This document shows, in pieces, positions 3,640-57,753 of a stretch of 64,000 nucleotides of DNA. The stretch spans positions 5,863 to 69,862 of the forward strand of contig CAZGOG010000005.1 in assembly GCA_964527555.1 (NCBI GenBank), written 5' to 3'. The DNA comes from an uncultured Planctomycetia bacterium (GTDB lineage Bacteria > Omnitrophota > Gorgyraeia > Tantalellales > Tantalellaceae). Numbering within the stretch: the stretch's first letter is position 1; every line of letters starts with the position of its first letter. The position numbers and the translations under genes are program-made. Under the pieces are notes generated by a model, which did not search any database, was not told where the DNA came from, and worked only from the letters and a program-made list of their open reading frames with translations.

Positions 3640-5887
3640 AAACCAGAAGCTTAAACAGTTTAAAGAGTGGATTATTCTTAAAGAGACCATTTCCATACTT
3701 ATAATCGTCGCATTTTTGATAGCGGCTCTTGCCAGTATATTTATAGGGCCGAGTCTCTATCTGGGCAAGACCCAGGAAGGGGATATAGCGCTTAAGAACA
3801 TATACGCGCCGTATGATTTTACTTATTTCTGGGAAATAGATGGGGAGAAGACAAGCGAGGCCAAAGACGCGGCAAAAGAAAAAGTCCCTTATGTGCTCAA
3901 ACGCGATTCTGCCGCTGAAAAGAAAGCTATAGAAAAAGTCAGTTCCTTTTTTGATGCATTCGGCAAAGAGAGTGCACCTGAAGCATCCCTGGCCGAAAAA
4001 GCCTCGGACATAAAAAGAAGAACTCGGGCAGACCTTTCAGAAAGAAATATCGAGTATCTTCTGGAATATCCAGATATATCGCTGCTTAAGAAAAAGGCTC
4101 TGGACGTTCTTGGAAAAGTCTTCCTTGCCGGTTATATAGACGATGGGACGCTGAAGCAGCTTAAAGAAAAAGGCGTAAGTAAAGTAGTCATTTTCAATAG
4201 TGAGACAAATGCCGAGACGGAAAGAACCATCGATAGTATTGTGACAGCGAAAAAGATCCAGGAAACCGCGATAGAGTATGCTTCGGCCGAATTTAAAGAC
4301 GACCGCAAGGTGCGCCAGCCGGCAGCTAGCCTGATCTCTGAATATGTCAGCCCCAACCTCATAGCGGATGAAAAAGAGACGGAAGCCAAAAGGGGAGCTG
4401 CTATAGAGAAAGTTAAACCCATCTACCACAGCTGGACGGTCGAGAAGAACGAACTTATCATTGAAAAAGGTACAAGGGTAACCGACCGTAATGTCGCCCA
4501 GATATCGCAAATCAGAAGAGTTTTCCGTCCGGGTGTGACGCCTACTTTGTTCTTAGGGGTCCTGCTTCTCTTCCTTCTTCTGGGACTGGTCGCCGTTATT
4601 TATATTTCGTTTATACAGGGGGTGAATTTCCTGCAAGACACCAAAGGTGTGGCTATAGTTTTGATAAACATGCTTTTTATGATTATCGCGGCTGATTTTA
4701 TCGTGCACCTTCCGCAGCCCAGTTATTTTATACCCGTTTCAGGGATGGCGATGCTTATCGCGCTTCTTGTAGGATCTAATATCGCCTTTATAGCCGCGGT
4801 ACTGATGAGTTTATGTATATCTTTACTCATAGGCGGAGGCATAGAAGTCGCGCTTGTCTTAATAGTAGGCAGCATCGTGGGGATATTCGTCGTCAGAGAC
4901 GCAAGACGGCGCACGAGGATACTCTGGGCGGGTTTTCTGGTGGGACTTACAAAGTTCCTGACTATTGCCTGTATAGGTCTAATCAATGAGATGGACGTGA
5001 ATTTTTATATAACTGACGGTGCCTGGGGTATAGCAGGCGGCATTCTTTCCGGATTCATAGTGATGGGGCTTTTGCCGGTTTTTGAGCATCTGTTTAAGAT
5101 CCCGACGAATATCAGCCTGCTGGAACTTTCGGATCTTAACCACCCGCTTTTGAAAAAACTTGCCATGGAAGCGCCCGGTACTTACCATCACAGCATAATG
5201 GTAGGCAATCTCGCGGAAGCGGCGTGCGATGCAATAGGCGCCAACAGCCTCTTGGCAAGAGTCGGGGCGTATTATCATGATATCGGCAAGATTCCCAAGG
5301 CTGAATATTTCAGCGAGAACGAGATGGGTTCCGGGTCCAAACACGCAAAGCTTGCCCCTTCCATGAGCGCTCTTATTATAGCCAAGCATGTTAAAGAAGG
5401 CGAGCAGATCGCCAGAAAGTACAAGCTTAATAGCGCAATAACCGATTTTATCAGACAGCACCATGGCGACAGCATGATATCTTATTTCTATCAGAAGGCG
5501 ATGGAAAAGGCGGAGGAAGGCACGATGCCGAAAGAGGAGAACTTCCGTTATCCCGGCCCCCGGCCCCAGACCAAGGAGAGCGCGATTATTCTCCTGGCCG
5601 ATGCGGTCGAGGCATCAAGCCGCGCGCTTGATGAGCCTACAGCCTCCAGCATAAGGCACCTTGTTAAAAAGATCATAAACAACAAGTTTATCGATGGCCA
5701 GCTCGATGAATGCGCTCTGACGTTAAAAGACATGCACATCATTGCGGAAAGTTTTCTCAGGGTGCTTATGGGTGTTTTTCATACAAGATTGAATTATCCG
5801 GAAGAAAGCAAAAAACAATCAGAAGAGAAGCCTGCTAATGGCAATAAAAATAAACAGCGAAAATTTAAACAAAAAAAGAAAGATTGA
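3632..5887 (+). CDS. pgpH: 7TM-receptor HD-domain phosphohydrolase (PgpH/YqfF family, c-di-AMP phosphodiesterase-like)
   Basis: 751 aa with an N-terminal extracytoplasmic region, about 7 TM helices and an HD motif 'YYHDIGK'. Overlaps the phoH stop by 8 nt. Confidence 0.8.
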   Translation: MNKNQKLKQFKEWIILKETISILIIVAFLIAALASIFIGPSLYLGKTQEGDIALKNIYAPYDFTYFWEIDGEKTSEAKDAAKEKVPYVLKRDSAAEKKAIEKVSSFFDAFGKESAPEASLAEKASDIKRRTRADLSERNIEYLLEYPDISLLKKKALDVLGKVFLAGYIDDGTLKQLKEKGVSKVVIFNSETNAETERTIDSIVTAKKIQETAIEYASAEFKDDRKVRQPAASLISEYVSPNLIADEKETEAKRGAAIEKVKPIYHSWTVEKNELIIEKGTRVTDRNVAQISQIRRVFRPGVTPTLFLGVLLLFLLLGLVAVIYISFIQGVNFLQDTKGVAIVLINMLFMIIAADFIVHLPQPSYFIPVSGMAMLIALLVGSNIAFIAAVLMSLCISLLIGGGIEVALVLIVGSIVGIFVVRDARRRTRILWAGFLVGLTKFLTIACIGLINEMDVNFYITDGAWGIAGGILSGFIVMGLLPVFEHLFKIPTNISLLELSDLNHPLLKKLAMEAPGTYHHSIMVGNLAEAACDAIGANSLLARVGAYYHDIGKIPKAEYFSENEMGSGSKHAKLAPSMSALIIAKHVKEGEQIARKYKLNSAITDFIRQHHGDSMISYFYQKAMEKAEEGTMPKEENFRYPGPRPQTKESAIILLADAVEASSRALDEPTASSIRHLVKKIINNKFIDGQLDECALTLKDMHIIAESFLRVLMGVFHTRLNYPEESKKQSEEKPANGNKNKQRKFKQKKKD

Positions 5888-15607: not shown

Positions 15608-15738
15608 ACCTGTGAAGCTCCATGGGCTAACGCCCATGGAATCCACAGTTTCAGTCGTTCCGTCAAGCGGAAAGACTGCACCGAAGGGCGTTCATCCATG
15701 CCCTTACGGGCGTGGTTTTCTGGTGCGTGGGTAAAAGC
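15608..15738 (-). repeat. Family-1 structured intergenic repeat, copy A (inverted, degenerate)
   Basis: Reverse complement aligns to copies B-D at about 90%. The outer helix is disrupted by substitutions. Confidence 0.8.
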
Positions 15739-18161: not shown

Positions 18162-18290
18162 TTTTACCCATGCACCAGAAGGCCACGCCCGTAAGGGCGT
18201 GGATGAATGGCCTTCGGTGCAGGGTTCCGCTTGACGGAAAGACTGAAACTGTGGATTCCATGGGCGTTAGCCCATGGAGCTTCACAAGGT
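18162..18290 (+). repeat. Family-1 structured intergenic repeat, copy B
   Basis: About 97% identical to copies C and D. Contains three hairpins and ends 40 nt before the ATG at 18331. Confidence 0.85.
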
Positions 18291-21886: not shown

Positions 21887-22897
21887 GTGAGGCGACAGAG
21901 ACAGATAAAAAAAATTACAATTATTTTTCTGGTCGCCGCTATTTGTATAATCAGCTTTAAAGTTTGTGTTTTTTACAAACAGCGGAGAGTGCCGCCGGCC
22001 GTTGAGGGTGGAGGAGCTCTCGAAGTAGTAAAAAGCTTTTCATTTTCTTCCGGTCAAGATTTGAAAGAATGGGATGAAAAGGTGCTTTCACGCAACGGTA
22101 CCGATTATCAAATAGCAGCGCTTGAGGGAGAAAACAAGGTAAGGGCCGTGAGCGAAGATTCAGCCTCGGCACTTTATTATAAACAGAGGCTTTTTTATAA
22201 GAAAAGTCCGTTTCTCAGCTGGGACTGGAAAGCGGAGAAGTTTCCTCTGCGCAGAGAGAAAGAAGTTCTGGATAAAAAAAGCGAATTTGATTTTGTCGCA
22301 CAGGTATATGTGGTGTTTCATTCGCAGTTTATTCTTCATGCTAAAGCTATCCAGTATGTCTGGACAGAAAGTATACCTAAAGGAACTATTGCGGCGAGCC
22401 CCTACACGAAAAACGTGAAGGTCATGGTGCTGGAATCCGGAGAGTCAGCAGAGTGGAGGCATGAACTGAGAAATATAAGGGAAGACTTTCTGCATCTTTT
22501 CGGAGAGGAACTGACAAGGGATATTGATGCCATAGCGTTTATGACGGATTCAGATAGCACCAATTCTAGCGCTATAGCGTACTACGATAATATCGAAATA
22601 GGGTACATAGAAAAACCCCAAGAGTACTTGCCTGAAAAAGTTCCAGAGAAAGAAGGGGAAGAGCCGGCGAAACCCGTAGAAGAGGTCAAAGAAGAACCAG
22701 CGCCGGGGCCTGAACCAGAAAGACCCGTAGAAGCCAAGGAAGCGGCAGCTTCGGCGGAACCAGTAGAAGAAGTGACAGAAGCGGTAGAGCCGGAGAAACC
22801 CGTAGAAGAAGCGATACCAGAGCCGGAGAAACCCGTAGAAGAGAATAAGACTGAAGTTGTAGAGGAAGAAAAGGCCGAGGCTGTGCAAGTCGAATAA
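21887..22897 (+). CDS. Membrane-anchored hypothetical protein with a C-terminal Pro/Glu-rich repeat tail
   Basis: N-terminal TM helix, globular domain, then repeats '(P)EKPVEE(x)'. Confidence 0.5.
   Translation: MRRQRQIKKITIIFLVAAICIISFKVCVFYKQRRVPPAVEGGGALEVVKSFSFSSGQDLKEWDEKVLSRNGTDYQIAALEGENKVRAVSEDSASALYYKQRLFYKKSPFLSWDWKAEKFPLRREKEVLDKKSEFDFVAQVYVVFHSQFILHAKAIQYVWTESIPKGTIAASPYTKNVKVMVLESGESAEWRHELRNIREDFLHLFGEELTRDIDAIAFMTDSDSTNSSAIAYYDNIEIGYIEKPQEYLPEKVPEKEGEEPAKPVEEVKEEPAPGPEPERPVEAKEAAASAEPVEEVTEAVEPEKPVEEAIPEPEKPVEENKTEVVEEEKAEAVQVE
22650..22880 (+). repeat. Imperfect tandem nucleotide repeats encoding a PEKPVEE low-complexity tail
   Basis: Units such as 'GAGCCGGAGAAACCCGTAGAAGA' recur at 22789 and 22821. 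Confidence 0.6.
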
Positions 22898-27354: not shown

Positions 27355-28131
27355 ATGGAAGATTTGGATAAAATAAAGAAAGTCGCCGAGGAAATGGCGA
27401 GGGAAGCCGGAGAGTACGCTATAAAACACATAGATAAAGTAGCTCAAGTTTCCCACAAGGGAGGATACAATAATCTCGTCACGGATGTCGACAAAAAATG
27501 TGAAAGCGTAATCATAAACCGGATAAACAAGGAATTTCCAAGTCACTCGATACTCGCCGAAGAGAGCGGAGATCATGCCTCTAAAAGCAGCGTTAAGTGG
27601 TTTGTCGATCCGCTTGACGGGACGACAAACTATGCGCACGCCTTTCCGGTTTTTTGTACTTCAATAGGCGTGGCTTTTGATTCCATCGTTAAAGTGGGAA
27701 TTGTATATGATCCATCCCGAGACGAACTTTTTGCCGCCGAAGATGGGAAAGGGGCTTTTTTAAACGGCAAGAGAATTAGTGTTTCCGGTATAAAGACGGT
27801 TAATGACTCACTTATGGCAACGGGATTTGCTTATGATCTTAAGGGGAAAGTCGCAAATATTGATGCTTTTAAAGTAATGCTCGAAAATGCCCAGGCTGTC
27901 AGGCGGGCGGGCTCGGCTGCAATTGACCTTTGTTATGTGGCATGTGGCCGTTTTGACGGATTCTGGGAATTAGGGCTTAATCCCTGGGACACCGCCGCAG
28001 GTCAACTGATAGTGAAGGAATCAGGAGGGGTTGTAACCACAATCGAGAACGGGCCTTTTGATGTGTATAAAAAAGACATTCTGGCCACAAATGGCAAGAT
28101 ACATGAACAAATATTGCGCCTGATGAAATAG
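27355..28131 (+). CDS. suhB: Inositol monophosphatase family protein
   Basis: 'WFVDPLDGTTNY' metal-binding motif. Confidence 0.8.
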   Translation: MEDLDKIKKVAEEMAREAGEYAIKHIDKVAQVSHKGGYNNLVTDVDKKCESVIINRINKEFPSHSILAEESGDHASKSSVKWFVDPLDGTTNYAHAFPVFCTSIGVAFDSIVKVGIVYDPSRDELFAAEDGKGAFLNGKRISVSGIKTVNDSLMATGFAYDLKGKVANIDAFKVMLENAQAVRRAGSAAIDLCYVACGRFDGFWELGLNPWDTAAGQLIVKESGGVVTTIENGPFDVYKKDILATNGKIHEQILRLMK

Positions 28132-28299: not shown

Positions 28300-28350
28300 C
28301 TATATTGTAAAATAATAAAAAGCAAGATATTTAATTTTAGGAGGGGAGAA

Positions 28351-28722
28351 ATGAAATATAGAACAATAATAGAACTCATATGCGAAGCATCGAGTAAAGA
28401 CGATGCGATAAACATCGCTGGCGACTATCTCAGCGGCGACGTTGAATTTGGTGTCCAGATGAAATGCCGCTCGGTGTCTCTCTGGGCGCACAAGATGAAA
28501 AAATACGCCGCATCCTGTGCCATTCTGTTTTTAGTTGTTTCCACGCTTTTTTTGAAAATTTCATCAATGGACGACACTGGCAAGATTTGCGTTTTGGCAA
28601 GCGGTAATTCTCATGGTGCCTATACGGTCGTACCTGCTTTAAAGACAAAGCATGAAGTTGATTTCAAAAAAGAGTGGGATGAGAAGACAGACGAAGTGGT
28701 GATGGATTTCCTTAAAGATTGA
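28351..28722 (+). CDS. Small single-TM protein, paralog 1 of a tandem pair
   Basis: RBS 'AGGAGGGG'. About 65% identical to the ORF at 28914. Confidence 0.55.
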   Translation: MKYRTIIELICEASSKDDAINIAGDYLSGDVEFGVQMKCRSVSLWAHKMKKYAASCAILFLVVSTLFLKISSMDDTGKICVLASGNSHGAYTVVPALKTKHEVDFKKEWDEKTDEVVMDFLKD

Positions 28723-28859: not shown

Positions 28860-28913
28860 CAGACTTAATCGTAAAATATTTAAAAGGAAGAATGTATATC
28901 AGACGGAGGAAAT

Positions 28914-29285
28914 ATGAAATACCGAACAGTGATAGAACTAATATGTGAAGCATCGGACAGAGAAGAAGCGACTAACATCTCCGGTGAGTATCTAAGGGGA
29001 AACATTGACTTTGGTGTCGAGATGAGATGCCAGGCTGTGACTCTCCGGGCTCACAGGATGAAAAAGTATACGGCTTCCTGTGCCATTTTGCTCTTGGCTT
29101 TTTCCGCGCTTTTTCTGAAGATCCAGTCTGCTACTAGCGATGCGAAGATCCCTGCTTTGGCATCTGGCGATTATCAGGGTACATATACGGTGGTGCCCGC
29201 GCTAAAGACAAAGCACAAAGCGGACTTCAAAGAAGAGTGGGACGAGAAGAAAGACGAGACGGTGCTGAAATTTCTGAAAGATTAA
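28914..29285 (+). CDS. Small single-TM protein, paralog 2
   Basis: RBS 'GGAGG'. 'MKYRT(I/V)IELICEAS...' is conserved with paralog 1. Confidence 0.55.
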   Translation: MKYRTVIELICEASDREEATNISGEYLRGNIDFGVEMRCQAVTLRAHRMKKYTASCAILLLAFSALFLKIQSATSDAKIPALASGDYQGTYTVVPALKTKHKADFKEEWDEKKDETVLKFLKD

Positions 29286-33987: not shown

Positions 33988-34476
33988 ATGAAAAAAATAG
34001 CGGTAATCTATTATTCAAGGTCGGGTAATACCGAAGCTATGGCTCATCTCGTTGCAGAAGGCGCGCGGGAGGAATCCGGCGTCCAGGTCGACGTGAAACG
34101 CGTCGAGGATTTCCCGGCTGAAAAGGCTTTGGAATATGACGGCCTGATTATAGGCTCTCCCACTTACTACGGCTCAATGGCGTACCAGGTAAAGAAATTT
34201 TTCGATGATTCTGTGACTTTTCATGGGAAACTTTCAGGGAGGGTCGGCGGTGCTTTTTCTTCGGCCGCTAATATCGGCGGCGGGAACGAAACGACCATAA
34301 CCGGTATTTTAAATGCGATGATGATCCACGGCATGATAGTCCAGGGTATTGAAACAGGAGACCATTTCGGGCCCGTTTCAATCGGCAGCCCCGACAAGAG
34401 GGTTACAAAACAGTGTCATGCTTACGGCAAGAGGATAGCCGCTTTAGTGAAAAAAGCGGCTATAAGCCGCTTATAA
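33988..34476 (+). CDS. Flavodoxin-like / NADPH-dependent FMN reductase family protein
   Basis: 'IAVIYYSRSGNTE' flavodoxin-fold N-terminus. Confidence 0.7.
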   Translation: MKKIAVIYYSRSGNTEAMAHLVAEGAREESGVQVDVKRVEDFPAEKALEYDGLIIGSPTYYGSMAYQVKKFFDDSVTFHGKLSGRVGGAFSSAANIGGGNETTITGILNAMMIHGMIVQGIETGDHFGPVSIGSPDKRVTKQCHAYGKRIAALVKKAAISRL

Positions 34477-34488
34477 GGTTTTTTTACA

Positions 34489-34666
34489 GGTTATGGTTCG
34501 ACTCACTTCGTTCGCTCACCATGAATCTGCGAGGAAAGATATTTTGAACTTAGAACGAAGGAACACCAGGGTGTGAAGGCGTGGACGCGGAAGTTGTGAC
34601 GCCAACAGGCGAAAAAGATGAAAGGGCGGACGTAAGTCCGTGGAGATTCATGAAAGGAGCACGGTC
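34489..34666 (+). ncRNA. Family-2 conserved leader element, copy 1 (candidate cis-regulatory RNA)
   Basis: About 94% identical over 80 nt to 48574-48653, with patchy similarity through to the RBS. Directly upstream of PIN-PhoH. Confidence 0.55.
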
Positions 34667-35989
34667 TTGAAAAAAATATTTGTACTGGACACTAACGTTA
34701 TATTGCACAACCCGAATTCACTTGTTTCGTTTGCTGATAATATTGTAGTTTTGCCCATAGAGGTGCTGGAGGAGCTGGATAATTTCAAAAAAAATCACGA
34801 TGAAAAAGGGCGCAACGCGAGAATAGCTATACGTCTTTTGGATAAGTTACGTAAGAAGGGGGAGCCCGGCAAGGGCTTTCCACTTGATAACGGCGGTCTT
34901 TTGAGGATTATAACAGGTATAGATTATGACAAGACCGTCGAGGTGAGGCTTTCCAGGGGGATAGTTGACAACAGGATATTACTTACCGCCTATATGCTCA
35001 AAAAAGAGGGGGAACGCGTGATATTCGTATCTAAGGATATTAACGCGAGGATCAAGGCTGACGCCATCGGGATTCCCAGTGTTGATTTTGAAAAACAGAA
35101 AGTCGATTTTGAGAGACTGTACACAGGGTGGCACCCCCTTAATGTGAAAAGAAGCGAAATAGACTCTTTTTACAAGAAAAAAGAGTATAAAGTCCCCGCA
35201 GGCGAATTCTTCCCGAACGAATTCGGGCTGCTGACAGATGCGGAAGACCCGAAACACACGGCGATAGGCAGGTACAAGGAAGATTTCGGGATACTTATGC
35301 CGCTCATCTTCAACAAGATGTTTGTGATGTCGCTGAGGCCCCGGAACAAAGAGCAGGTCATGGCGCTGGAACTCTTGCTCAATGATGATATAAATCTGGT
35401 AACCCTTGTCGGCCCGGCAGGTACAGGTAAGACGCTTTTGGCCATGGCGGCGGGACTTCAGAAAGTTATAAAAGATAAATCGTATGAAGGGCTTCTCATC
35501 GCGCGCCCCGTTATGCCGCTAGGCAACGATATCGGGTTTCTTCCGGGAACGAAGGAGGAAAAACTGGAGAGCTGGATGGGGCCTATATTTGACAATCTTG
35601 AGTATATTTTGAATGCGGAGAGGAAAGACAAAAACGTTAAGGTTAAGCCGAAAATTCAGATTGAAAAATATATTAAAGAAGAGATAATAGAACTTGAGGC
35701 TATGACATTTATGAGGGGCAGGAGCATCCCTGATCGTTTTATCATTATAGACGAGGCTCAGAACATGACCCCTCATGAAGTAAAGACCGTAATCAGCCGT
35801 GCGGGTAATCACACAAAAATGGTTCTTACGGGAGACCCGTACCAGATAGATAACCCTTATCTCGACGCCTCCAGTAACGGCCTGGCGTATTGTGTGGAAA
35901 GGATGAAAGGGCAACAGATGTTCGGCCACATGATACTAACGAAAAGCGAAAGAAGTTCTTTGGCTTCGCTTGCGGCGGAACGGTTATAA
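34640..35989 (+). CDS. PIN-domain + PhoH-like ATPase (PhoH2/YlaK family)
   Basis: N-terminal PIN ('VLDTNVILH') and C-terminal Walker A 'GPAGTGKT'. The true start may be the TTG at 34667, preceded by 'AAAGGAG'. Confidence 0.8.
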   Translation: MEIHERSTVLKKIFVLDTNVILHNPNSLVSFADNIVVLPIEVLEELDNFKKNHDEKGRNARIAIRLLDKLRKKGEPGKGFPLDNGGLLRIITGIDYDKTVEVRLSRGIVDNRILLTAYMLKKEGERVIFVSKDINARIKADAIGIPSVDFEKQKVDFERLYTGWHPLNVKRSEIDSFYKKKEYKVPAGEFFPNEFGLLTDAEDPKHTAIGRYKEDFGILMPLIFNKMFVMSLRPRNKEQVMALELLLNDDINLVTLVGPAGTGKTLLAMAAGLQKVIKDKSYEGLLIARPVMPLGNDIGFLPGTKEEKLESWMGPIFDNLEYILNAERKDKNVKVKPKIQIEKYIKEEIIELEAMTFMRGRSIPDRFIIIDEAQNMTPHEVKTVISRAGNHTKMVLTGDPYQIDNPYLDASSNGLAYCVERMKGQQMFGHMILTKSERSSLASLAAERL

Positions 35990-37485: not shown

Positions 37486-38577
37486 TTATTTAGCCATCGC
37501 GTAAGTTGAGCACTTTTTGTATCCCTTGTAATTTGCTTGTATGACCTCTTGAGCCGGTTTATTTTGCGGCGTAAACTGTCTGTTGTACTCTCCCCCGGCA
37601 TTTATGTTTGTATCCCATTTCCACCAGTATACCCCCGCAAGCCAAGGTTCGTTCCATATGGTCTGGAAAAACGCTTCGTAGCACCTGGCCTGTATTTCCG
37701 GGTCGGCATTTCCGCATGTGCCCCCTTTCCAGGGAGTGTAAGGAGCATGCGGAGTGCTTGCATAACCTATTTCAGTGAAGATGATGGGTTTATTGACCTG
37801 GACTTGCCAGGTTTCGATTTCGTATTTCCACTTTTCCCATCCCTTCTTAAGGTCTTCGATCGTCGGGGCAGATTCATATGTAAGCGGAAAGTAAGCATCT
37901 ATACCCACGTAATCCAGTATATCCCAGAACTTAATGTTCTTGAAATTGTCCCAGTTAGCGGCATAGACGAGTTCTCCCGAGTAGATCTTTTTTACCTCTT
38001 CGATTATTGTACGCCACTCGGAATCTTTCTGTGTGGTAAAGGAGAGCTCCGTTCCCACGCAGAAGAGTTCCACTTTTTCCTTTTCAGCCATCTTCGCATA
38101 GTGAGTTATGTTTTTCTTATATTCCAGGAACCACTTCTTCCAATCATCTTCAGTGTTGAATCCGATATCAGCACGCCAGTAAGTGCCGTCATATTTATCG
38201 AGAAGATCAATGTGGGGTTTGAGCATGACTTTAAGTCCCAGCGTATGGGCGCGTTTGATTGTATGGACTATGCTTCTATCGCTGGGAGTTTGGTCTGTAG
38301 GTTTTATTTCCGTGGAATTATATTGTTCCTGGTATAGCGTCACGCATATTGAGAGGTATTCTACTCCCAGGGACGCGAGTTTCTCCAGGGATTCGTCAGA
38401 GTATTGGGAAGCAAATCTTTCTTTTTCCCAGGTCACGTAACACATACCTTTTTGTGGCAGGAATAGTGTCGTTTCGGAAAATACCGGAAGCACGGGAGAG
38501 AATTGGTATATCGCAAAAACCATTGCGACGAGAACATATAGCGCATTTGTTTTCTTTTTAAGTCGTTGGATCTTCAT
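37486..38577 (-). CDS. Secreted clan GH-A glycoside hydrolase (GH113/GH26/GH5-like TIM barrel)
   Basis: Signal peptide and candidate catalytic motifs 'GTEL' and 'FTEIGY'. Confidence 0.55.
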   Translation of the reverse strand: MKIQRLKKKTNALYVLVAMVFAIYQFSPVLPVFSETTLFLPQKGMCYVTWEKERFASQYSDESLEKLASLGVEYLSICVTLYQEQYNSTEIKPTDQTPSDRSIVHTIKRAHTLGLKVMLKPHIDLLDKYDGTYWRADIGFNTEDDWKKWFLEYKKNITHYAKMAEKEKVELFCVGTELSFTTQKDSEWRTIIEEVKKIYSGELVYAANWDNFKNIKFWDILDYVGIDAYFPLTYESAPTIEDLKKGWEKWKYEIETWQVQVNKPIIFTEIGYASTPHAPYTPWKGGTCGNADPEIQARCYEAFFQTIWNEPWLAGVYWWKWDTNINAGGEYNRQFTPQNKPAQEVIQANYKGYKKCSTYAMAK

Positions 38578-39014
38578 TTTCTTGCCTTCCTTTCCGCAAA
38601 ACCCGTTTTGACAAAGGCAAGACCCTGTGGATAGGCTTACAAAAAGTTAGCAGAAAATGATGATCCAAGAGTTTCAGTTTCGGCAGTCTGACGACCATGT
38701 CCCCAAAAGGGGAGTTAGGCTCATGACTTTGCGTCCTATCCTTTAGGATAGTTTGCCTTTATCGTCTATAAACAAGTTTTTTAAAGAGCTTTTGCGATCT
38801 CAATTATAAGCTTAATGATAAAAAAACAAAAAGCAAGATGGAAAAACAAACTTTTTAATATTTAACTTTGATCGAGATTTTAGTATAATTTAAACGCAAA
38901 ATCAAAGAGATTTCCATAGTTGTAAAATTTCATTTGTCTTTCAGGTACTATTTTTATATAATCTATTGCACCAAAAGTGCAAAAGGTCTTGTATAAAATA
39001 CGCAAGGAGAAAAA

Positions 39015-39494: not shown

Positions 39495-39620
39495 TTTACC
39501 CATGCACCAGAAGGCCACGCCCGTAAGGGCGTGGATGAATGGCCTTCGGTGCAGTCTTTCCGCTTGACGGAAAGACTGAAACTGTGGACGCCATGGGCGT
39601 TAGCCCATGGAGCTTCACAA
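39494..39620 (+). repeat. Family-1 structured intergenic repeat, copy C
   Basis: Starts at the greA stop codon and ends 25 nt before the phosphoesterase ATG. Confidence 0.85.
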
Positions 39621-45395: not shown

Positions 45396-48300
45396 ATGGA
45401 TGCCTTCCAAAAGTATTACAAGAGTTTAAACAGTCAGCAGAGAAAAGCCGCCGGTACCACCGATGGCGCGGTCCTGGTGCTTGCCGGTCCCGGTACCGGC
45501 AAGACGCAGCTACTTTCTATCCGAACCGCCAACATTATCAGGCAAAATAAAGCTAAGGCGGAGAATATCCTCATCCTTACATTTACAAACGCAGCCGCTA
45601 GAGCCATGCGGCAAAGGCTTGCCTCAGTCATAGGACATGACGGATACAACGTGGAAGTTGAGACATTTCACAGTTTTGCCAACTCTATAGTCCTGGAATC
45701 GGAAGGCGCCATCAAATACGTCAAGGACAGGATAGAGATGAGCGAGGTCGAAAAAGTCAGAGCCATAGAATATATCCTGGATAACGTTAAAGGCGCCGAA
45801 GTCCTAAGGCCTTTCGGCTCGCCCTATATCCACCGCAAGGAGATCGAGAAAAGGATCAGCGAACTTAAGAATGAAGGGATAACACCGGAAGACTTTAACA
45901 GCAGCCTGAAAGATCTAAAAGCGGACGGCATAAATCTGGAAGAGAGGCATATCACGCGCCTCAACGCGCTTAGCATTATTTACGAAAATTATGAGAAGTT
46001 AAAGGACGAAAAGTCTCTCGTTCTTTTTGATGAAAGAGGCCGGATAGATTATGACGACATGATACTTATCGCTTTAGACGCCTTAAAAAAGGATGAGGAG
46101 CTCCGGAAGCTTTTCAGGAAAGAGTACAAGTACGTAATGGTCGATGAATACCAGGACACCAACGGCGCGCAGCTGGAACTGCTTTTTGCTATTTTGGACC
46201 CGGTCTCCTGCAATGTCTGTTGCGTTGGTGACGATGACCAGGCGATTTACCGTTTCCAGGGCGCTACTTTAGCGAATTTCCGCGAACTTAAGAAGAGGCT
46301 TCCCGCTCTTGAGACGATCAAGCTTACGGATAATTATCGGTCGACCGGCCGCTTAATAGAACTGACGGACAAGATAATCCGGCAGCTTCCCGAGAAAGAA
46401 CGCATAGCCGTAAAAAATCTTACGTCTTGCGCGCATTATAATAACGACGGCATCCGTTTTCTGGAATTTTTGACCGAAGAAGAAGAACTTGCCTTCCTGG
46501 TGGAAGAGGTGAAGAAGCAGGCGGACATTATCAAAAAGGACAAATCGCTTTCGGCCGAAGAGAGAGAAAAACCTTTTAATAATATTGCCGTATTGGTACG
46601 CAAAAGAGAACAAATATTACGCGTTATAGATGCGTTTTTGAAAGCCGGAGTGCCTTATGCCACGGATGGAGAGGAAGACATAAGACAGGAGAGGCGCGTA
46701 AGACAGATGCTTGATGTGCTCGAACTTGCCAGAGCGAGTGCCGCAACTAACGAGAGAAAGTCTCTTGTGCTTTATAAGGTTCTTACATCCGATTATATTG
46801 ATGCCTCACAGACGGACATATTAAAATTTATCAGTTTCATCGAGGGCCTCAGGCGTTCTCGGAAGGCAAACGGTATCGATGATTACCGCTCATGTAATTT
46901 TTTCGAGATATTCGTTGAACGTTTCGCCAGGTTTGAAAAAAACGCCGACGGTGGGAATCTTATGCCTTCCGGCAGTGAATCAAGCGCCCTTGGGATTGCC
47001 CGCGAACTGAAACTTGAAAACCCCTGCGCTTTGCATAAGGCAGCATGGGCGATAAACAGGCTTCTCGCCGATAGCGGCAGTCGCCCCGTTCACGATGTGC
47101 TTATGAGGTACATAAGCGACGTGAATCTATACAGATTTATTTTGAAGAGGTACGAAAAAGACCAAGTCATCCGCATAAGGGATTTAAGGGCTTTAGTCTC
47201 TTTTATCAACATGGTCAAAGAGGCGGATATGGCTAACCCGGCTTTGGGACTTGATGAATTTATGGAAGAGCTGAGCTTGAGAGAAATGCACGGTATGCCC
47301 GTTAAAGGGGAGCTTGCCACCCTCAGCCAGGATGGGGTGCGTCTTTATACCGCGCATAAGTCAAAGGGGCTTGAGTTCTATACCGTATTTATGCCGTTCT
47401 GTCTTGAACAGAAAAGCTGGCCGGTCCGCAAAAAAGCGGAGACGGTGCCGCTCCCTCCGGAGATATGCAGGAGCAAAGAGAGGGCGACTGAAAAAGAGAC
47501 GCTGAAGCTTCTTAATAGATATGATGAACTGCGCCTTTTCTATGTAGCGTCTACCAGAGCTAAAGCATATCTTATCTATACGGCCACCCCACGCGAAAAA
47601 GTCGTAATAAGCCAGTTTTTAAGCTACATAGGCATGGAGCCTGTCTCTGGGGCGCCGCCGGAGGAAGAGGAGTTTCTCGGTGAGTACCTGCAAAGAACGA
47701 AGGATAGAGACCCGCTTGAGAATATCTCGGATGCAGTGCAAGATATTGTTACGAATCTTTCATTAAACCCCACCAGCCTTAATAATTACATAACCTGCAG
47801 GAGAAAGTTCCTCTACGATAACGTACTGCGTCTTCCGGGCAGGAAGAACCAGCACCTAGTTTTTGGTAACTGCGCACACAAGGCCCTTGAAGAGGTGTAC
47901 ACATCTTTCATGGATAATGGGAAATTTCCTTCCTTTGTGTTTTTTAAGGATGCATTCAAGAAAGAACTGGAGTACCAGGGCTCAACTAGCGAGATAAAGA
48001 CCTGGTGTCTGGACAGGCTGGAGACCTTGAGCAAGTGGTACGCCGTTTCTGCAAAATCCCCGGTAATGCCCATGGACCTTGAAAATAAACTGGAAATTCA
48101 TATTCCGGAGGGGCCTCTATTCAAGGGTACGTTTGATAAGATAGAGGCGGATGCCGCGGGAGGCATCCGCGTGATAGATTATAAGACCGGCAAGCCCGAT
48201 AAGCATATAAAGGCTATAGCCAATTGCAAGGATCTTTCGAAGTATGCGTGTGACGATTATTACCGGCAGCTCGTAGCGTACAAGATGCTGTATGAAGCTT

Positions 48301-48572
48301 CCCGTTCGGTAAGGGAACAGAAGTCTGTCACCAAAGGCGTAATCCAGTTTTTGGAACCGGTATCAGAGACCGTAAAAAAATACAGCATGGAAAAAGGCAC
48401 ATACAGCGATATCACCGTCGATCTTACGGATGAGATGGTTAAGGAGCTTAAAAATGTTATAATGGATTGCTGGAATAATATACAGGCGCTTAAGTTCGAG
48501 AAGTTGCCGGAAAGAGACGATAAAGACAGGTGCGCCCGGTGTGAATATGACTCTATTTGCTGGCAGAGGTAA
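45396..48572 (+). CDS. UvrD/PcrA-type helicase fused to a C-terminal PD-(D/E)XK Fe-S nuclease (AddA/Cas4-like)
   Basis: Walker A 'AGPGTGKTQ' and UvrD motifs. The C-terminus carries 'C...CARCEYDSIC' (C-x2-C-x5-C). Confidence 0.75.
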   Translation: MDAFQKYYKSLNSQQRKAAGTTDGAVLVLAGPGTGKTQLLSIRTANIIRQNKAKAENILILTFTNAAARAMRQRLASVIGHDGYNVEVETFHSFANSIVLESEGAIKYVKDRIEMSEVEKVRAIEYILDNVKGAEVLRPFGSPYIHRKEIEKRISELKNEGITPEDFNSSLKDLKADGINLEERHITRLNALSIIYENYEKLKDEKSLVLFDERGRIDYDDMILIALDALKKDEELRKLFRKEYKYVMVDEYQDTNGAQLELLFAILDPVSCNVCCVGDDDQAIYRFQGATLANFRELKKRLPALETIKLTDNYRSTGRLIELTDKIIRQLPEKERIAVKNLTSCAHYNNDGIRFLEFLTEEEELAFLVEEVKKQADIIKKDKSLSAEEREKPFNNIAVLVRKREQILRVIDAFLKAGVPYATDGEEDIRQERRVRQMLDVLELARASAATNERKSLVLYKVLTSDYIDASQTDILKFISFIEGLRRSRKANGIDDYRSCNFFEIFVERFARFEKNADGGNLMPSGSESSALGIARELKLENPCALHKAAWAINRLLADSGSRPVHDVLMRYISDVNLYRFILKRYEKDQVIRIRDLRALVSFINMVKEADMANPALGLDEFMEELSLREMHGMPVKGELATLSQDGVRLYTAHKSKGLEFYTVFMPFCLEQKSWPVRKKAETVPLPPEICRSKERATEKETLKLLNRYDELRLFYVASTRAKAYLIYTATPREKVVISQFLSYIGMEPVSGAPPEEEEFLGEYLQRTKDRDPLENISDAVQDIVTNLSLNPTSLNNYITCRRKFLYDNVLRLPGRKNQHLVFGNCAHKALEEVYTSFMDNGKFPSFVFFKDAFKKELEYQGSTSEIKTWCLDRLETLSKWYAVSAKSPVMPMDLENKLEIHIPEGPLFKGTFDKIEADAAGGIRVIDYKTGKPDKHIKAIANCKDLSKYACDDYYRQLVAYKMLYEASRSVREQKSVTKGVIQFLEPVSETVKKYSMEKGTYSDITVDLTDEMVKELKNVIMDCWNNIQALKFEKLPERDDKDRCARCEYDSICWQR

Positions 48573-48573
48573 A

Positions 48574-48751
48574 GCTTATGGTTCGACTCACTTCGTTCGC
48601 TCACCATTAATCTGCGGGGAAAGATATTTTGGACTTAGAACGAAGGAACACCACGGATGTTAATTCGTGGATGCAGAACTATATCGACCGAAGGTCGCAA
48701 AGGGATGAACCACGGACGTGAATCCGTAGAGATTCATAAGGAGAGATGACC
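48574..48751 (+). ncRNA. Family-2 conserved leader element, copy 2 (candidate cis-regulatory RNA)
   Basis: Begins 2 nt after the helicase stop and ends at the yhaM start. Confidence 0.55.
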
Positions 48752-49765
48752 ATGGAAAAGAGATTTATTTCCGATCTAAAAGTTAATGAGAAAATAGACA
48801 CGATTTTTATATTGAGAAAAAAGAACCTCAAGCTTACCAAATACGATAAGCCGTACCTGGAGATGTCTTTCCAGGATAAGACGGGGAAGATCGAGGGGCG
48901 CCTCTGGGATGATGCCGATAAGTTCAACGAGGCGGCTGAAACCGGCGAGGCCGTGAGGGTGAAAGGGGTAGTCGATAAGTACCGTGACGAAAAACAGCTT
49001 AAAGTCGATTCCATAGCCAAGGCCGATGAACGCAGTTTCAAGTATGAGGATATGGTCCGCGTTGCGGAGAATAGAGACGGGATCTACCGGGACATCATCA
49101 AGTATTTAGAGGAAACAAAAAATCCCTGGCTGCGCAAATTGGCGGAGGAGTTTACCGGAGACGGAAGTCTCATGGCTCTCTTTAAAGACGGGTTGGGGGG
49201 CAAGGCATGGCATAATGCTTATATAGGCGGGCTTATGGAGCACACATATGAAGTCATGTATATAGTGAGAGAGATGTGCAAACTTTACCCTATGGCGGAT
49301 AAGGATATTGCCGTTATGGGCGCATTTATACATGATATAGGCAAGGTGTTCGAGTTGGATCCGAAGAAGCTGGAATATACAATCGATGGGGGCTTGCTCG
49401 GCCATATCGCTATAGGGCACAAGATCTTCATGAAGAAAATCGACAGCATACCGGACTTTCCCGGGGATCTCAGCCTGCGGCTTGAACACATTGTTCTTAG
49501 CCATCACGGCGAGTATGAGCAGCAATCCCCGGTTCTTCCCAAGACACTTGAAGCTACTATCGTGTACCAGGTTGATGAACTGGTCTCCCAGGCGAATGCG
49601 ATCAAAGAGATTCAGATATCGCAGAGGGAAGAGGGTAAAATCTGGAGTGATTTCGTCTCGATCAAGAACAGAAAATATTATATTAAAAGCGCTGAGGATG
49701 AAGACTGGATGCGTGAAGTTTCCGGTGATGAGGAGAAGACTAAAAAGGACGATTTATTCGCCTGA
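48752..49765 (+). CDS. yhaM: 3'-5' exoribonuclease YhaM-like (OB fold + HD domain)
   Basis: N-terminal OB fold and HD motifs 'HNAYIGG' and 'HDIGK'. Confidence 0.75.
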   Translation: MEKRFISDLKVNEKIDTIFILRKKNLKLTKYDKPYLEMSFQDKTGKIEGRLWDDADKFNEAAETGEAVRVKGVVDKYRDEKQLKVDSIAKADERSFKYEDMVRVAENRDGIYRDIIKYLEETKNPWLRKLAEEFTGDGSLMALFKDGLGGKAWHNAYIGGLMEHTYEVMYIVREMCKLYPMADKDIAVMGAFIHDIGKVFELDPKKLEYTIDGGLLGHIAIGHKIFMKKIDSIPDFPGDLSLRLEHIVLSHHGEYEQQSPVLPKTLEATIVYQVDELVSQANAIKEIQISQREEGKIWSDFVSIKNRKYYIKSAEDEDWMREVSGDEEKTKKDDLFA

Positions 49766-57629: not shown

Positions 57630-57753
57630 TTTTACCCATGCACCAGAAGGCCACGCCCGTAAGGGCGTGGATGAATGGCCTTCGGTGCAGGGTTCCGCTT
57701 GACGGAAAGACTGAAACTGTGGATGCCATGGGCGTTAGCCCATGGAGCTTCAC
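57630..57753 (+). repeat. Family-1 structured intergenic repeat, copy D
   Basis: About 97% identical to copy B. Lies inside the dcw cluster, 12 nt upstream of the ATG at 57766. Confidence 0.85.

Follow-up and report, generated by a model that had tools for sequence, protein, structure and literature searches.

The segment described here fills a short spacer between two genes read from the + strand of an Omnitrophota contig; the window, i.e., the whole stretch of DNA that was analyzed, is 64,000 nt long. The upstream gene encodes a helicase-nuclease and closes with the stop codon TAA (48570-48572), and the downstream gene, which opens with an ATG at 48752, encodes a YhaM-like protein whose homologs are named 3'-5' exoribonuclease YhaM family and come from Candidatus Omnitrophota. 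The spacer holds the second copy (A2) of a repeat element, termed A, the 3' end of which is shared with a second repeat family, termed B. The features of this locus are as follows (hairpins are predicted):

45396-48572, + strand: UvrD-type helicase fused to a PD-(D/E)XK nuclease, 1058 aa (Pfam UvrD-helicase, UvrD_C, and PDDEXK_1)
48576-48737, + strand: repeat element A, copy 2 (A2), 162 nt, (TTAT)GGTTCG...GAGATTCAT
48579-48653, + strand: 5' hairpin module of A2 (UGGU...ACCA), from predicted folds, 95% identical to the A1 module
48580-48606, + strand: 27-nt motif GGTTCGACTCACTTCGTTCGCTCACCA, also present, with 1 nt inserted, in four unrelated metagenome contigs of low GC content
48651-48670, + strand: hairpin hpA (CCACG-GATGTTAATT-CGTGG), which the last hairpin (48710-48729) nearly repeats in direct orientation
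48685-48697, + strand: hairpin H2 (CGACC-GAA-GGTCG), from folds of the last 60 nt of each copy
48705-48737, + strand: terminal hairpin H3 (AUGAA..ACGGA-CGUGAA-UCCGU..UUCAU), the part common to A and B, which holds the 3' end of A
48738-48751, + strand: native Shine-Dalgarno (SD) sequence and spacer of yhaM (AAGGAGAGATGACC), outside the repeat; ATAAGGAGAGATG also occurs in the element-free locus L081
48752-49765, + strand: yhaM-like gene, OB fold and HD domain, 337 aa (Pfam HD and tRNA_anti-codon)

The preliminary description had drawn the segment from the helicase-nuclease stop codon up to the yhaM start. Its left end holds, as A2 starts 3-6 nt past the TAA, and the segment as a whole does reach the yhaM start; the repeat proper, on the other hand, ends at 48737, with the yhaM start codon 14 nt past the end of A2, and the last 14 nt of the segment (AAGGAGAGATGACC) are native SD and spacer. 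Because TTAT and TCAT are similar, the limits of A2 are uncertain by up to 4 nt, and the same range applies to the first copy, A1. A JGI contig from the same strain (L082) carries A2 with a single nucleotide polymorphism, G to C at 48632, and two Logan contigs (L083 and L084) have their start inside A2. The predicted fold of A2 is better than that of shuffled sequences (z = -3.0). Plasmids and phages gave no match to A2 by blastn.

The first copy of the element is flanked by a flavodoxin gene and a PIN-PhoH gene:

34491-34651, + strand: repeat element A, copy 1 (A1), 161 nt, found by the repeat finder, blastn, and nhmmer
34667-35989, + strand: PIN-PhoH (YlaK-like) gene with a probable TTG start at 34667 (Pfam PIN_4 and PhoH)

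That two copies exist in the window, as the preliminary description had stated, was borne out: the first 40 nt of the segment occur twice with at most 2 mismatches (at 34489 and 48574), where 100 shuffles gave an expectation of 0. The repeat finder matches 34485-34571 to 48570-48656 at 93% identity, and with blastn and nhmmer the copies are alignable over their full roughly 175-180 nt (E-value 5e-38). The observation that the 5' part is nearly unchanged and the 3' part has drifted also stands, as 75 of 79 columns (95%) are identical in the former vs. 63 of 89 (71%) in the latter (Fisher p = 3.4e-5), a disparity between the halves that is not predicted by simple neutral repeat copying. It may reflect constraint on the 5' module, a mosaic origin, or gene conversion. 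A JGI contig (L103) carries A1 unchanged. The predicted fold of A1 is no better than shuffles (z = -0.26), and a separate terminator-like hairpin followed by T7 lies upstream of it, at 34454-34486. Both copies read in the sense direction and stop 0-1 nt short of an SD, and the genes 3' of them (PIN-PhoH and YhaM) are nucleic-acid-processing genes whose homologs are nearly all from Candidatus Omnitrophota. Most PIN-PhoH homologs are 440 aa in length. The PIN-PhoH protein called by JGI has 449 aa and a GTG start that falls within A1; an exact-protein look-up found no record of the 440-aa form. Only these two A copies are known in about 84 kb of this genome, which comprises the window and 10 kb on each side (L094 and L097; ENA ERZ27256783, contig k141_1090046, 379,746 bp).

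The 5' module of A is predicted to form a self-contained imperfect hairpin of 75 nt. Its core stem in A2 is an exact 8-bp inverted repeat, CTTCGTTC (48591-48598) and GAACGAAG (48638-48645), and the three differences between the A1 and A2 modules, as well as the polymorphism in L082, all lie outside this stem as read from the alignment. A tRNA-like reading of GGTTCGA...CACCA was discarded, since on reading the sequence the would-be T-stem is unpaired and the CCA spacing is wrong. A leader peptide (ATG GTT CGA ...) within the module was likewise rejected, as it has no SD, its stop differs between the copies (10 vs. 27 codons), and related motifs carry a 1-nt indel that changes its frame. Six-frame translations of the repeats yielded no conserved ORF.

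The 27-nt motif at the start of the module is found beyond this genome. A metagenome scan with the pattern GGTTCGACTCAC-N8-GCTCACC, which does not reach the source genome's own copies because the window has N7, matched four contigs (L085, L089, L090, and L092; GC 37-46%) in which GGTTCGACTCAC-n-nnCGTTCGCTCACCA is invariant. Aligned with the two window copies, these give 26 invariant columns, 5 of which are positions left free in the search pattern. Among 103 loci, the N7 pattern, GGTTCGACTCAC-N7-GCTCACC, had no match beyond the copies of this strain, and in IMG/VR it had none at all. The four contexts of the motif elsewhere are a secE-nusG spacer; a site directly 5' of rmuC in a low-GC genome that, judging from its gene content, we infer to be CPR-like; a site with a radical-SAM-like gene on one side and a small ORF on the other, where the motif provides one arm of an 85-nt hairpin; and a site beside a tRNA gene. 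These contexts are unrelated, and the first 27 nt of A are therefore a repeat motif of wide distribution, not a signal specific to yhaM. The occurrence of the motif in the secE-nusG spacer, after the radical-SAM-like gene, and beside the tRNA gene also led to the rejection of an SOS/LexA-type box serving DNA/RNA repair genes as a regulon signal. Either constraint on the motif or its horizontal spread is likely. Its wide spread may explain why the 5' module is the better kept part of A, and a mosaic origin or gene conversion is equally possible.

The 3' part of A leads to family B, which has at least 7 copies of 93-99% identity in the same 84 kb, 4 in + and 3 in - orientation. They include:

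15612-15735, - strand: B copy antisense to both of its + strand flanking genes (an unknown 165-aa ORF and a response regulator), from the repeat finder and nhmmer
18162-18285, + strand: B copy flanked by a transglutaminase-like gene and an 80-aa ORF, from the repeat finder and nhmmer
39495-39618, + strand: B copy, 124 nt, between greA and a metallophosphoesterase gene, with three hairpins, starting directly past the greA stop codon
57630-57753, + strand: B copy that separates mraZ from rsmH in the dcw cluster and contains the start of JGI contig L099
right-hand 10-kb flank, - strand: B copy in the murD/ftsW spacer
right-hand 10-kb flank, - strand: B copy after ftsA

The neighbors of B (response regulator, transglutaminase-like, greA/metallophosphoesterase, mraZ/rsmH, murD/ftsW, and ftsA) are functionally unrelated, and the copies of A and B occupy intergenic spacers only; the B copies at mraZ/rsmH, murD/ftsW, and greA lie within housekeeping operons. 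JGI contig L099 both starts and ends within B copies; assembly breaks inside A and B copies are typical of repeats. A further B-like nhmmer match (27575-27634) was dismissed as chance, as an inositol-monophosphatase-like coding sequence spans it. No candidate for a further copy came from a protein search that used the 41-aa peptide encoded in a reverse frame of B.

The predicted fold of B has three strong hairpins, with an energy of -72.5 kcal/mol and z = -8.1. The relationship of A to B is seen in weak but consistent nhmmer matches of the A profile to B copies (E-values of 6e-4 to 0.02) and in a local alignment of the 3' part of A with B, whose score is reached in 2-7 of 1000 dinucleotide shuffles and on the same strand only; the 5' part of A and, separately, the reverse strand stay at background level in the shuffle test. 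In all copies of A and B, the final 60 nt adopt the same predicted fold, i.e., H2, a linker, and then terminal H3. The place of H2 is taken by CGCC-AACA-GGCG in A1 and by TCCG-CTTGA-CGGA in B, and H3 is closed by AUGAA/UUCAU in A and by GUGGA/CUUCAC in B. Covariation is confined to this terminal hairpin: 93.8% of the cells in its alignment are paired and 3 A/B pairs are compensatory, one of them involving the element's last nucleotide, although these pairs represent few independent events and are support rather than proof. Within A2, 48650-48671 matches 48709-48730 at 82% over 22 nt. The counterpart of hpA in B is CCACGCCC-GTAA-GGGCGTGG (39515-39534), which forms a pair with the similar hairpin CCATGGGC-GTTA-GCCCATGG (39591-39610); the two lie on one strand, close to the ends of B. 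These data suggest that A is composite, with a 5' hairpin module joined to a 3' part whose last roughly 50 nt appear homologous to the 3' end of B.

The B- or A-type ends are written here as TTTAC/CCATGCACC ... GGAGCTTCAC/, where slashes mark the limits. An invariant TTTAC precedes each of the 6 B copies that have a left flank (the copy that ends L097 is cut off), TTAT stands 5' of both A copies, and an empty B site in locus L100 of the closest relative reads CTTTA/A. The 3' terminal tetranucleotides are TCAC in B and TCAT in A, as against left flanks of TTAC and TTAT, respectively. A regular-expression screen combined with folding, which sought the common 3' end (RGAGNTTCAY preceded by a hairpin) across about 330 kb of Omnitrophota loci, returned only this genome's copies.

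The closest relative, from sample ERZ27256772 (loci L081 and L100), has a YhaM that is 82% and a PIN-PhoH that is 91% identical to those of the window. At the A2 site, it has a 22-nt spacer, TAAaagtatATAAGGAGAGATGgatATG, without the element; the L081 spacer reads ggTAAaagtatATAAGGAGAGATGgatATG, against ggTAAagc[TTATGGTTCG ... GAGATTC]ATAAGGAGAGATGaccATG in the window. At the A1 site, its L100 locus has a 38-nt spacer that ends in ...caattaATGAAAGGAGaagttTTG and keeps the same ATGAAAGGAG, and the window reads ...acagg[TTATGGTTCG ... GGAGATTC]ATGAAAGGAGcacggtcTTG. The site of the B copy at 39495 (greA) is also empty in L100, with a spacer of 37 nt, and A1 is missing from a more distant relative as well (L101/L102, 83% identical). 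From the empty sites in the closest relative, it follows that A1 and A2 are insertions of about 160 nt relative to the nearest genome, with limits at 34491-34651 and 48576-48737, and that the SDs of yhaM and the PIN-PhoH gene are native and outside A.

The gene order persists without the element well beyond this relative. The C-terminus of the helicase-nuclease is kept upstream of yhaM in 15 Omnitrophota loci (14 GTDB representatives and L081), with spacers of 9-187 nt that are unrelated to A2; one further helicase-nuclease/yhaM spacer, of 280 nt, includes a masked run. A profile built from the two A copies had no nhmmer match in the orthologous spacers, and neither A nor B was found by nhmmer in about 48 kb of close relatives or in 80 GTDB loci. 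The preliminary description had called the segment a conserved leader and had held that it is unlikely to be required if orthologous loci lack it and retain the same gene order and expression; these 15 loci, among them that of the closest relative with its 22-nt spacer, do retain the gene order without the element, and the notion of a conserved leader is not supported. Its suggestion that helicase, leader, and yhaM could form one transcript is plausible, given the adjacency of the two genes in 15 relatives and the lack of a terminator or sigma-70-like promoter in the element. Several of the relatives' spacers contain palindromic sequences of their own, namely heptamer-type GTTCGTG arrays (L004 and L006), hairpins with arms of 60-70 nt (L007 and L009), and a GTCATTCCCGC-type repeat (L008); therefore, the helicase-nuclease/yhaM spacer appears to be a recurrent landing site of unrelated palindromic inserts across the phylum.

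Searches for known classes of element were negative. Rfam produced nothing credible, either for the whole window at gathering thresholds or for A1, A2, and one B copy at E ≤ 10, and only chance-level sRNA and miRNA matches occurred near A1. Terminator-like sites on the + strand numbered 0 in 48400-48850 and in A1, and neither A copy has a sigma-70-like promoter on this strand. No SD-sequestering helix is common to A1 and A2, since the pairing of the start region in the minimum free energy fold of A2 is not seen in A1. Terminal inverted repeats are lacking in A1, A2, and B, in which all inverted repeats found are internal hairpins, and no target duplication is common to the flanks of the six B copies that have both; a 2-nt AT at the flank of A2 may be a duplication or may belong to the element. 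No transposase, RAYT, or integrase is present among the Pfam-assigned genes of the window, of its 10-kb flank on either side, and of the same genome's other loci. Readings of B as an integron attC site, a terminator, or an sRNA gene were rejected, as it has no core sites, U-tract, or promoter. A literature search returned no paper on Omnitrophota repeats or on peptide strings from the A and B repeats.

A and B can nonetheless be compared with several known families of small repeats. The BOX elements of Streptococcus pneumoniae are modular (boxA-boxB-boxC), non-coding, intergenic near gene starts, and not known to carry a transposase of their own. A and B resemble them in length (about 100-200 nt), in a composite build with unequally kept modules, in their stable predicted hairpins, in their intergenic position near gene starts, and in the lack of a transposase of their own; in contrast, they share no sequence similarity with BOX, belong to another phylum, and are seen here as 2 A copies and one B architecture. 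The Correia/NEMIS elements of Neisseria are operon MITEs that are co-transcribed, differ in presence between strains, and can alter expression of their neighbors; they are bounded by terminal inverted repeats of 26 bp and duplicate a TA. A and B are like these in size (about 100-160 nt), in lying near gene starts, and in varying in presence and absence, and co-transcription is likewise plausible here; they have neither terminal inverted repeats nor a TA duplication.

REP, BIME, and REPIN sequences are high-copy extragenic hairpin repeats that occur in operons and in both orientations, with an effect on mRNA stability that is secondary. The REPs are single palindromes of 20-40 nt with a conserved GTAG-type head, typically arranged as inverted pairs. 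They are mobilized by RAYT transposases (on these elements, see PMC3337134). B is similarly an extragenic hairpin repeat inside operons and in both orientations; however, A and B units are 124-162 nt long with 3-4 different hairpins in direct order, and no RAYT was seen in 84 kb. ERIC/IRU and other RU-type units (about 127 nt) are transcribed intergenic sequences within operons in either orientation, and they are imperfect palindromes whose presence or absence varies between related genomes, as outlined in the sources cited (Delihas, 2011, PMC3184786; PMC2759123). B agrees with ERIC in size (124 nt), intergenic operon sites, use of either orientation, and variable presence. On the other hand, ERIC is one long imperfect palindrome, whereas B has three serial hairpins and A is a module with a B-like tail, and sequence similarity between ERIC and A or B is lacking.

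The elements also bear some likeness to PATEs, which are MITE-like and derived from IS200/IS605 insertion sequences. B has no terminal inverted repeats and no consistent target duplication and has two similar same-strand subterminal hairpins, A2 has an internal direct hairpin repeat, and the left-flank tetranucleotide (TTAC in B and TTAT in A) resembles the 3' end (TCAC in B and TCAT in A). For IS608, the left-flank sequence is TTAC; in the present comparison, TTTAC may be target or element sequence. The differences are that no TnpA/TnpB gene with matching ends was found, that orientation is mixed in one replichore, and that the 3' end of A and B lies within a stem, not a few nucleotides beyond a hairpin.

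A and B are small, non-coding, and multi-copy, and their presence or absence differs between relatives, as in this general class of repeats. A2 is most probably a lineage-specific, composite, non-autonomous, non-coding interspersed repeat that was inserted in the very short gap separating the helicase-nuclease gene from yhaM. An A element of about 160 nt would have entered a gap of formerly about 22 nt in one Omnitrophota lineage. It would then be carried passively on the helicase-yhaM operon transcript and have at most a side effect on mRNA stability or processing, like REP, BOX, ERIC, and Correia elements. The median gene spacing is 25.5 nt (38 gene pairs in the two flanks), and in such a compact genome the tolerated insertion sites would be the few bases from a stop codon to the next SD. 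With genes about 25 nt apart, an inserted repeat would therefore abut both the stop codon and the SD, which would give it the look of a leader.

We infer the mobility of A and B from presence and absence only, and their spread would need a trans-acting enzyme. An IS200/IS605-type single-strand (HUH/Y1) mechanism is a low-confidence candidate because of the lack of terminal inverted repeats and of a consistent target duplication, the same-strand hairpins of B, and the invariant TTTAC. The whole window has a uniformly positive GC skew, which places the region in one replichore; within it, 5 repeat elements are in + and 3 in - orientation, and this mixture argues against a strictly strand-specific IS200/IS605-type mechanism. 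The fuller proposal, that A and B form a new PATE-like family of Omnitrophota mobilized as single strands by a HUH/Y1 enzyme, with the nearly invariant 27-nt motif (GGTTCGACTCAC-TTCG-TTCGCTCACCA), which also occurs in contigs resembling candidate phyla, as a protein-recognition site, is unlikely. A selected regulatory role for A specifically is possible.

A different account would make A a cis-regulatory leader RNA, riboswitch-like or protein-binding, common to the PIN-PhoH gene and yhaM, with the 5' module as its sensor. Both A copies are in sense 0-1 nt from an SD, both downstream genes encode nucleic-acid enzymes, A2 folds better than shuffles (z = -3.0), and the 5' module is far better kept than the rest of A, its first 27 nt being kept even in distant bacteria. 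However, A is missing 5' of yhaM at the 15 orthologous loci and 5' of both genes in the closest relative, no Rfam family matches at E ≤ 10, and there is no terminator or conserved SD-sequestering helix, with the fold of A1 at z = -0.26. In addition, the 3' part of A belongs to B, which itself also occurs in antisense and in unrelated operons, and the 27-nt motif is found elsewhere in unrelated contexts (secE-nusG, 5' of rmuC, beside a tRNA). Such a leader is thus very unlikely.

Less probable still is that A is not mobile at all, being the product of a one-off segmental duplication or gene conversion, or an ancestral element deleted in relatives. The clean vacancy of the A1, A2, and B-39495 sites in one relative with SDs intact, the lack of the element in more distant relatives, the at least 7 dispersed copies of the related B in both orientations, and the breaking of assemblies at the repeats all weigh against this account, despite the fact that there are two A copies only, that searches for terminal inverted repeats, a target duplication, or a transposase were negative, and that a near-identical 5' module is expected after gene conversion. 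The preliminary description had also raised an intrinsic terminator or RNA-processing site of the helicase-nuclease gene doubling as the yhaM 5' UTR, which is the least probable reading of all. While A2 starts directly past the stop codon and contains several stable predicted hairpins, and structured intergenic repeats such as REP and Correia can be RNase targets or 3'-end stabilizers, no hairpin followed by a T-run (U-tract) exists on the + strand of either A copy, relatives' spacers of 9-57 nt suffice, and A1, lying downstream of a separate terminator-like hairpin, is not needed there as a terminator. The evidence thus favors the interspersed repeat.

A and B are two previously undescribed, related, structured interspersed repeat families of Candidatus Omnitrophota. 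In kind, A is ordinary, i.e., a small intergenic interspersed repeat from an understudied phylum, and it holds no surprise for specialists on bacterial repeats. It does call for caution, as a repeated, structured, 5' UTR-like sequence in the compact genomes of uncultured phyla is not automatically a riboswitch-like leader. Public annotation is already affected, since the 449-aa PIN-PhoH model begins within the repeat, and A and B break metagenome assemblies. If the PATE-like reading were true, A could bring regulatory input to the genes 3' of its landing site. If a mobilizing enzyme is found, A and B would be useful for the study of repeat dynamics in ultra-small, host-dependent bacteria.

Repeat B, a family of 124-nt three-hairpin elements whose 3' end is related to the 3' part of repeat A, is present in at least seven copies in 84 kb, with 93-99% identity. 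Copies in the window and in L097, the locus that extends it by 10 kb on the right, are as follows:

Window 15612-15735, - strand, B copy
Window 18162-18285, + strand, B copy
Window 39495-39618, + strand, B copy
Window 57630-57753, + strand, B copy
L097 13851-13974, - strand, B copy
L097 21341-21374, - strand, B copy

Copies of B lie within housekeeping operons, including the dcw cluster, and TTTAC is found directly 5' of the element in all six copies with a readable left flank. There are two subtypes, whose middle hairpins differ in the lower stem.

In many Omnitrophota genomes (L001-L014), the spacer between the helicase-nuclease gene and yhaM, which in this genome holds copy A2, contains long palindromes or arrays of tandem heptamers that differ from one another and are specific to the lineage; CCCGTTAGAAAT...ATTTCTAACGGG is common to the L001 and L002 spacers. 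Examples include:

L004 3892-4000, spacer 5' of yhaM
L006 2443-2614, spacer 5' of yhaM
L007 3831-4000, spacer 5' of yhaM
L009 3320-3506, spacer 5' of yhaM

The other copy, A1, probably caused a mis-called start in the public PIN-PhoH gene model, as the JGI model (449 aa, P0121) begins at a GTG inside A1 (window 34640-34666), while homologues mostly have 440 aa, with a start that corresponds to the TTG at 34667. Upstream, a terminator-like hairpin (window 34454-34486; AAGCGGCTATAAGCCGCTT) shares sequence with the final codons of the flavodoxin gene; T7 comes after it, just 5' of A1. This hairpin is absent from the corresponding locus of the closest relative (L100), in which the flavodoxin C-terminus is shorter.

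A 27-28-nt motif, GGTTCGACTCAC(n)TTCGTTCGCTCACCA, which matches the start of A except for a 1-nt insertion, was found in unrelated low-GC metagenome contigs:

L085 4784-4835, - strand, motif site
L089 1021-1071, + strand, motif site
L090 8726-8777, - strand, motif site
L092 2596-2647, - strand, motif site

The motif translates as FDSLRSLT and its reverse as VSERSESN, which resembles peptides from spurious ORFs that cover repeats in numerous environmental genomes; a literature search on these peptide strings found nothing. In L085 (~4640-4850, - strand), the motif-bearing insert of ~95 nt is flanked by an intact tRNA gene and, on its far side, a duplicated 15-nt tRNA 5' fragment (CGGGGAGTAGCGCAG), and looks like an insertion into, or beside, the tRNA 5' end.

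Elsewhere in the window, a c-di-GMP-I riboswitch (38679-38767, - strand; 77.7 bits) lies ~100 nt 5' of a gene for a GH113 glycoside hydrolase (37486-38577, - strand). Adjacent small ORFs of 144 and 123 aa (28345-28720 and 28908-29283; period 563 nt) are tandem paralogues with 75-77% DNA identity and no Pfam match. Degenerate direct repeats (22645-22857; spacing 33-87 nt; 65-78% identity to the reference copy) specify a low-complexity E/P/K/V-rich stretch in the C-terminal portion of a gene for a DUF3047 protein.

Independent assemblies of the same population break at the repeats: Logan contigs L083 and L084 begin 72 nt 5' of yhaM (window 48680), inside A2, and both ends of the JGI contig L099 fall within B copies. 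These breaks are consistent with further copies of A and B elsewhere in the genome.
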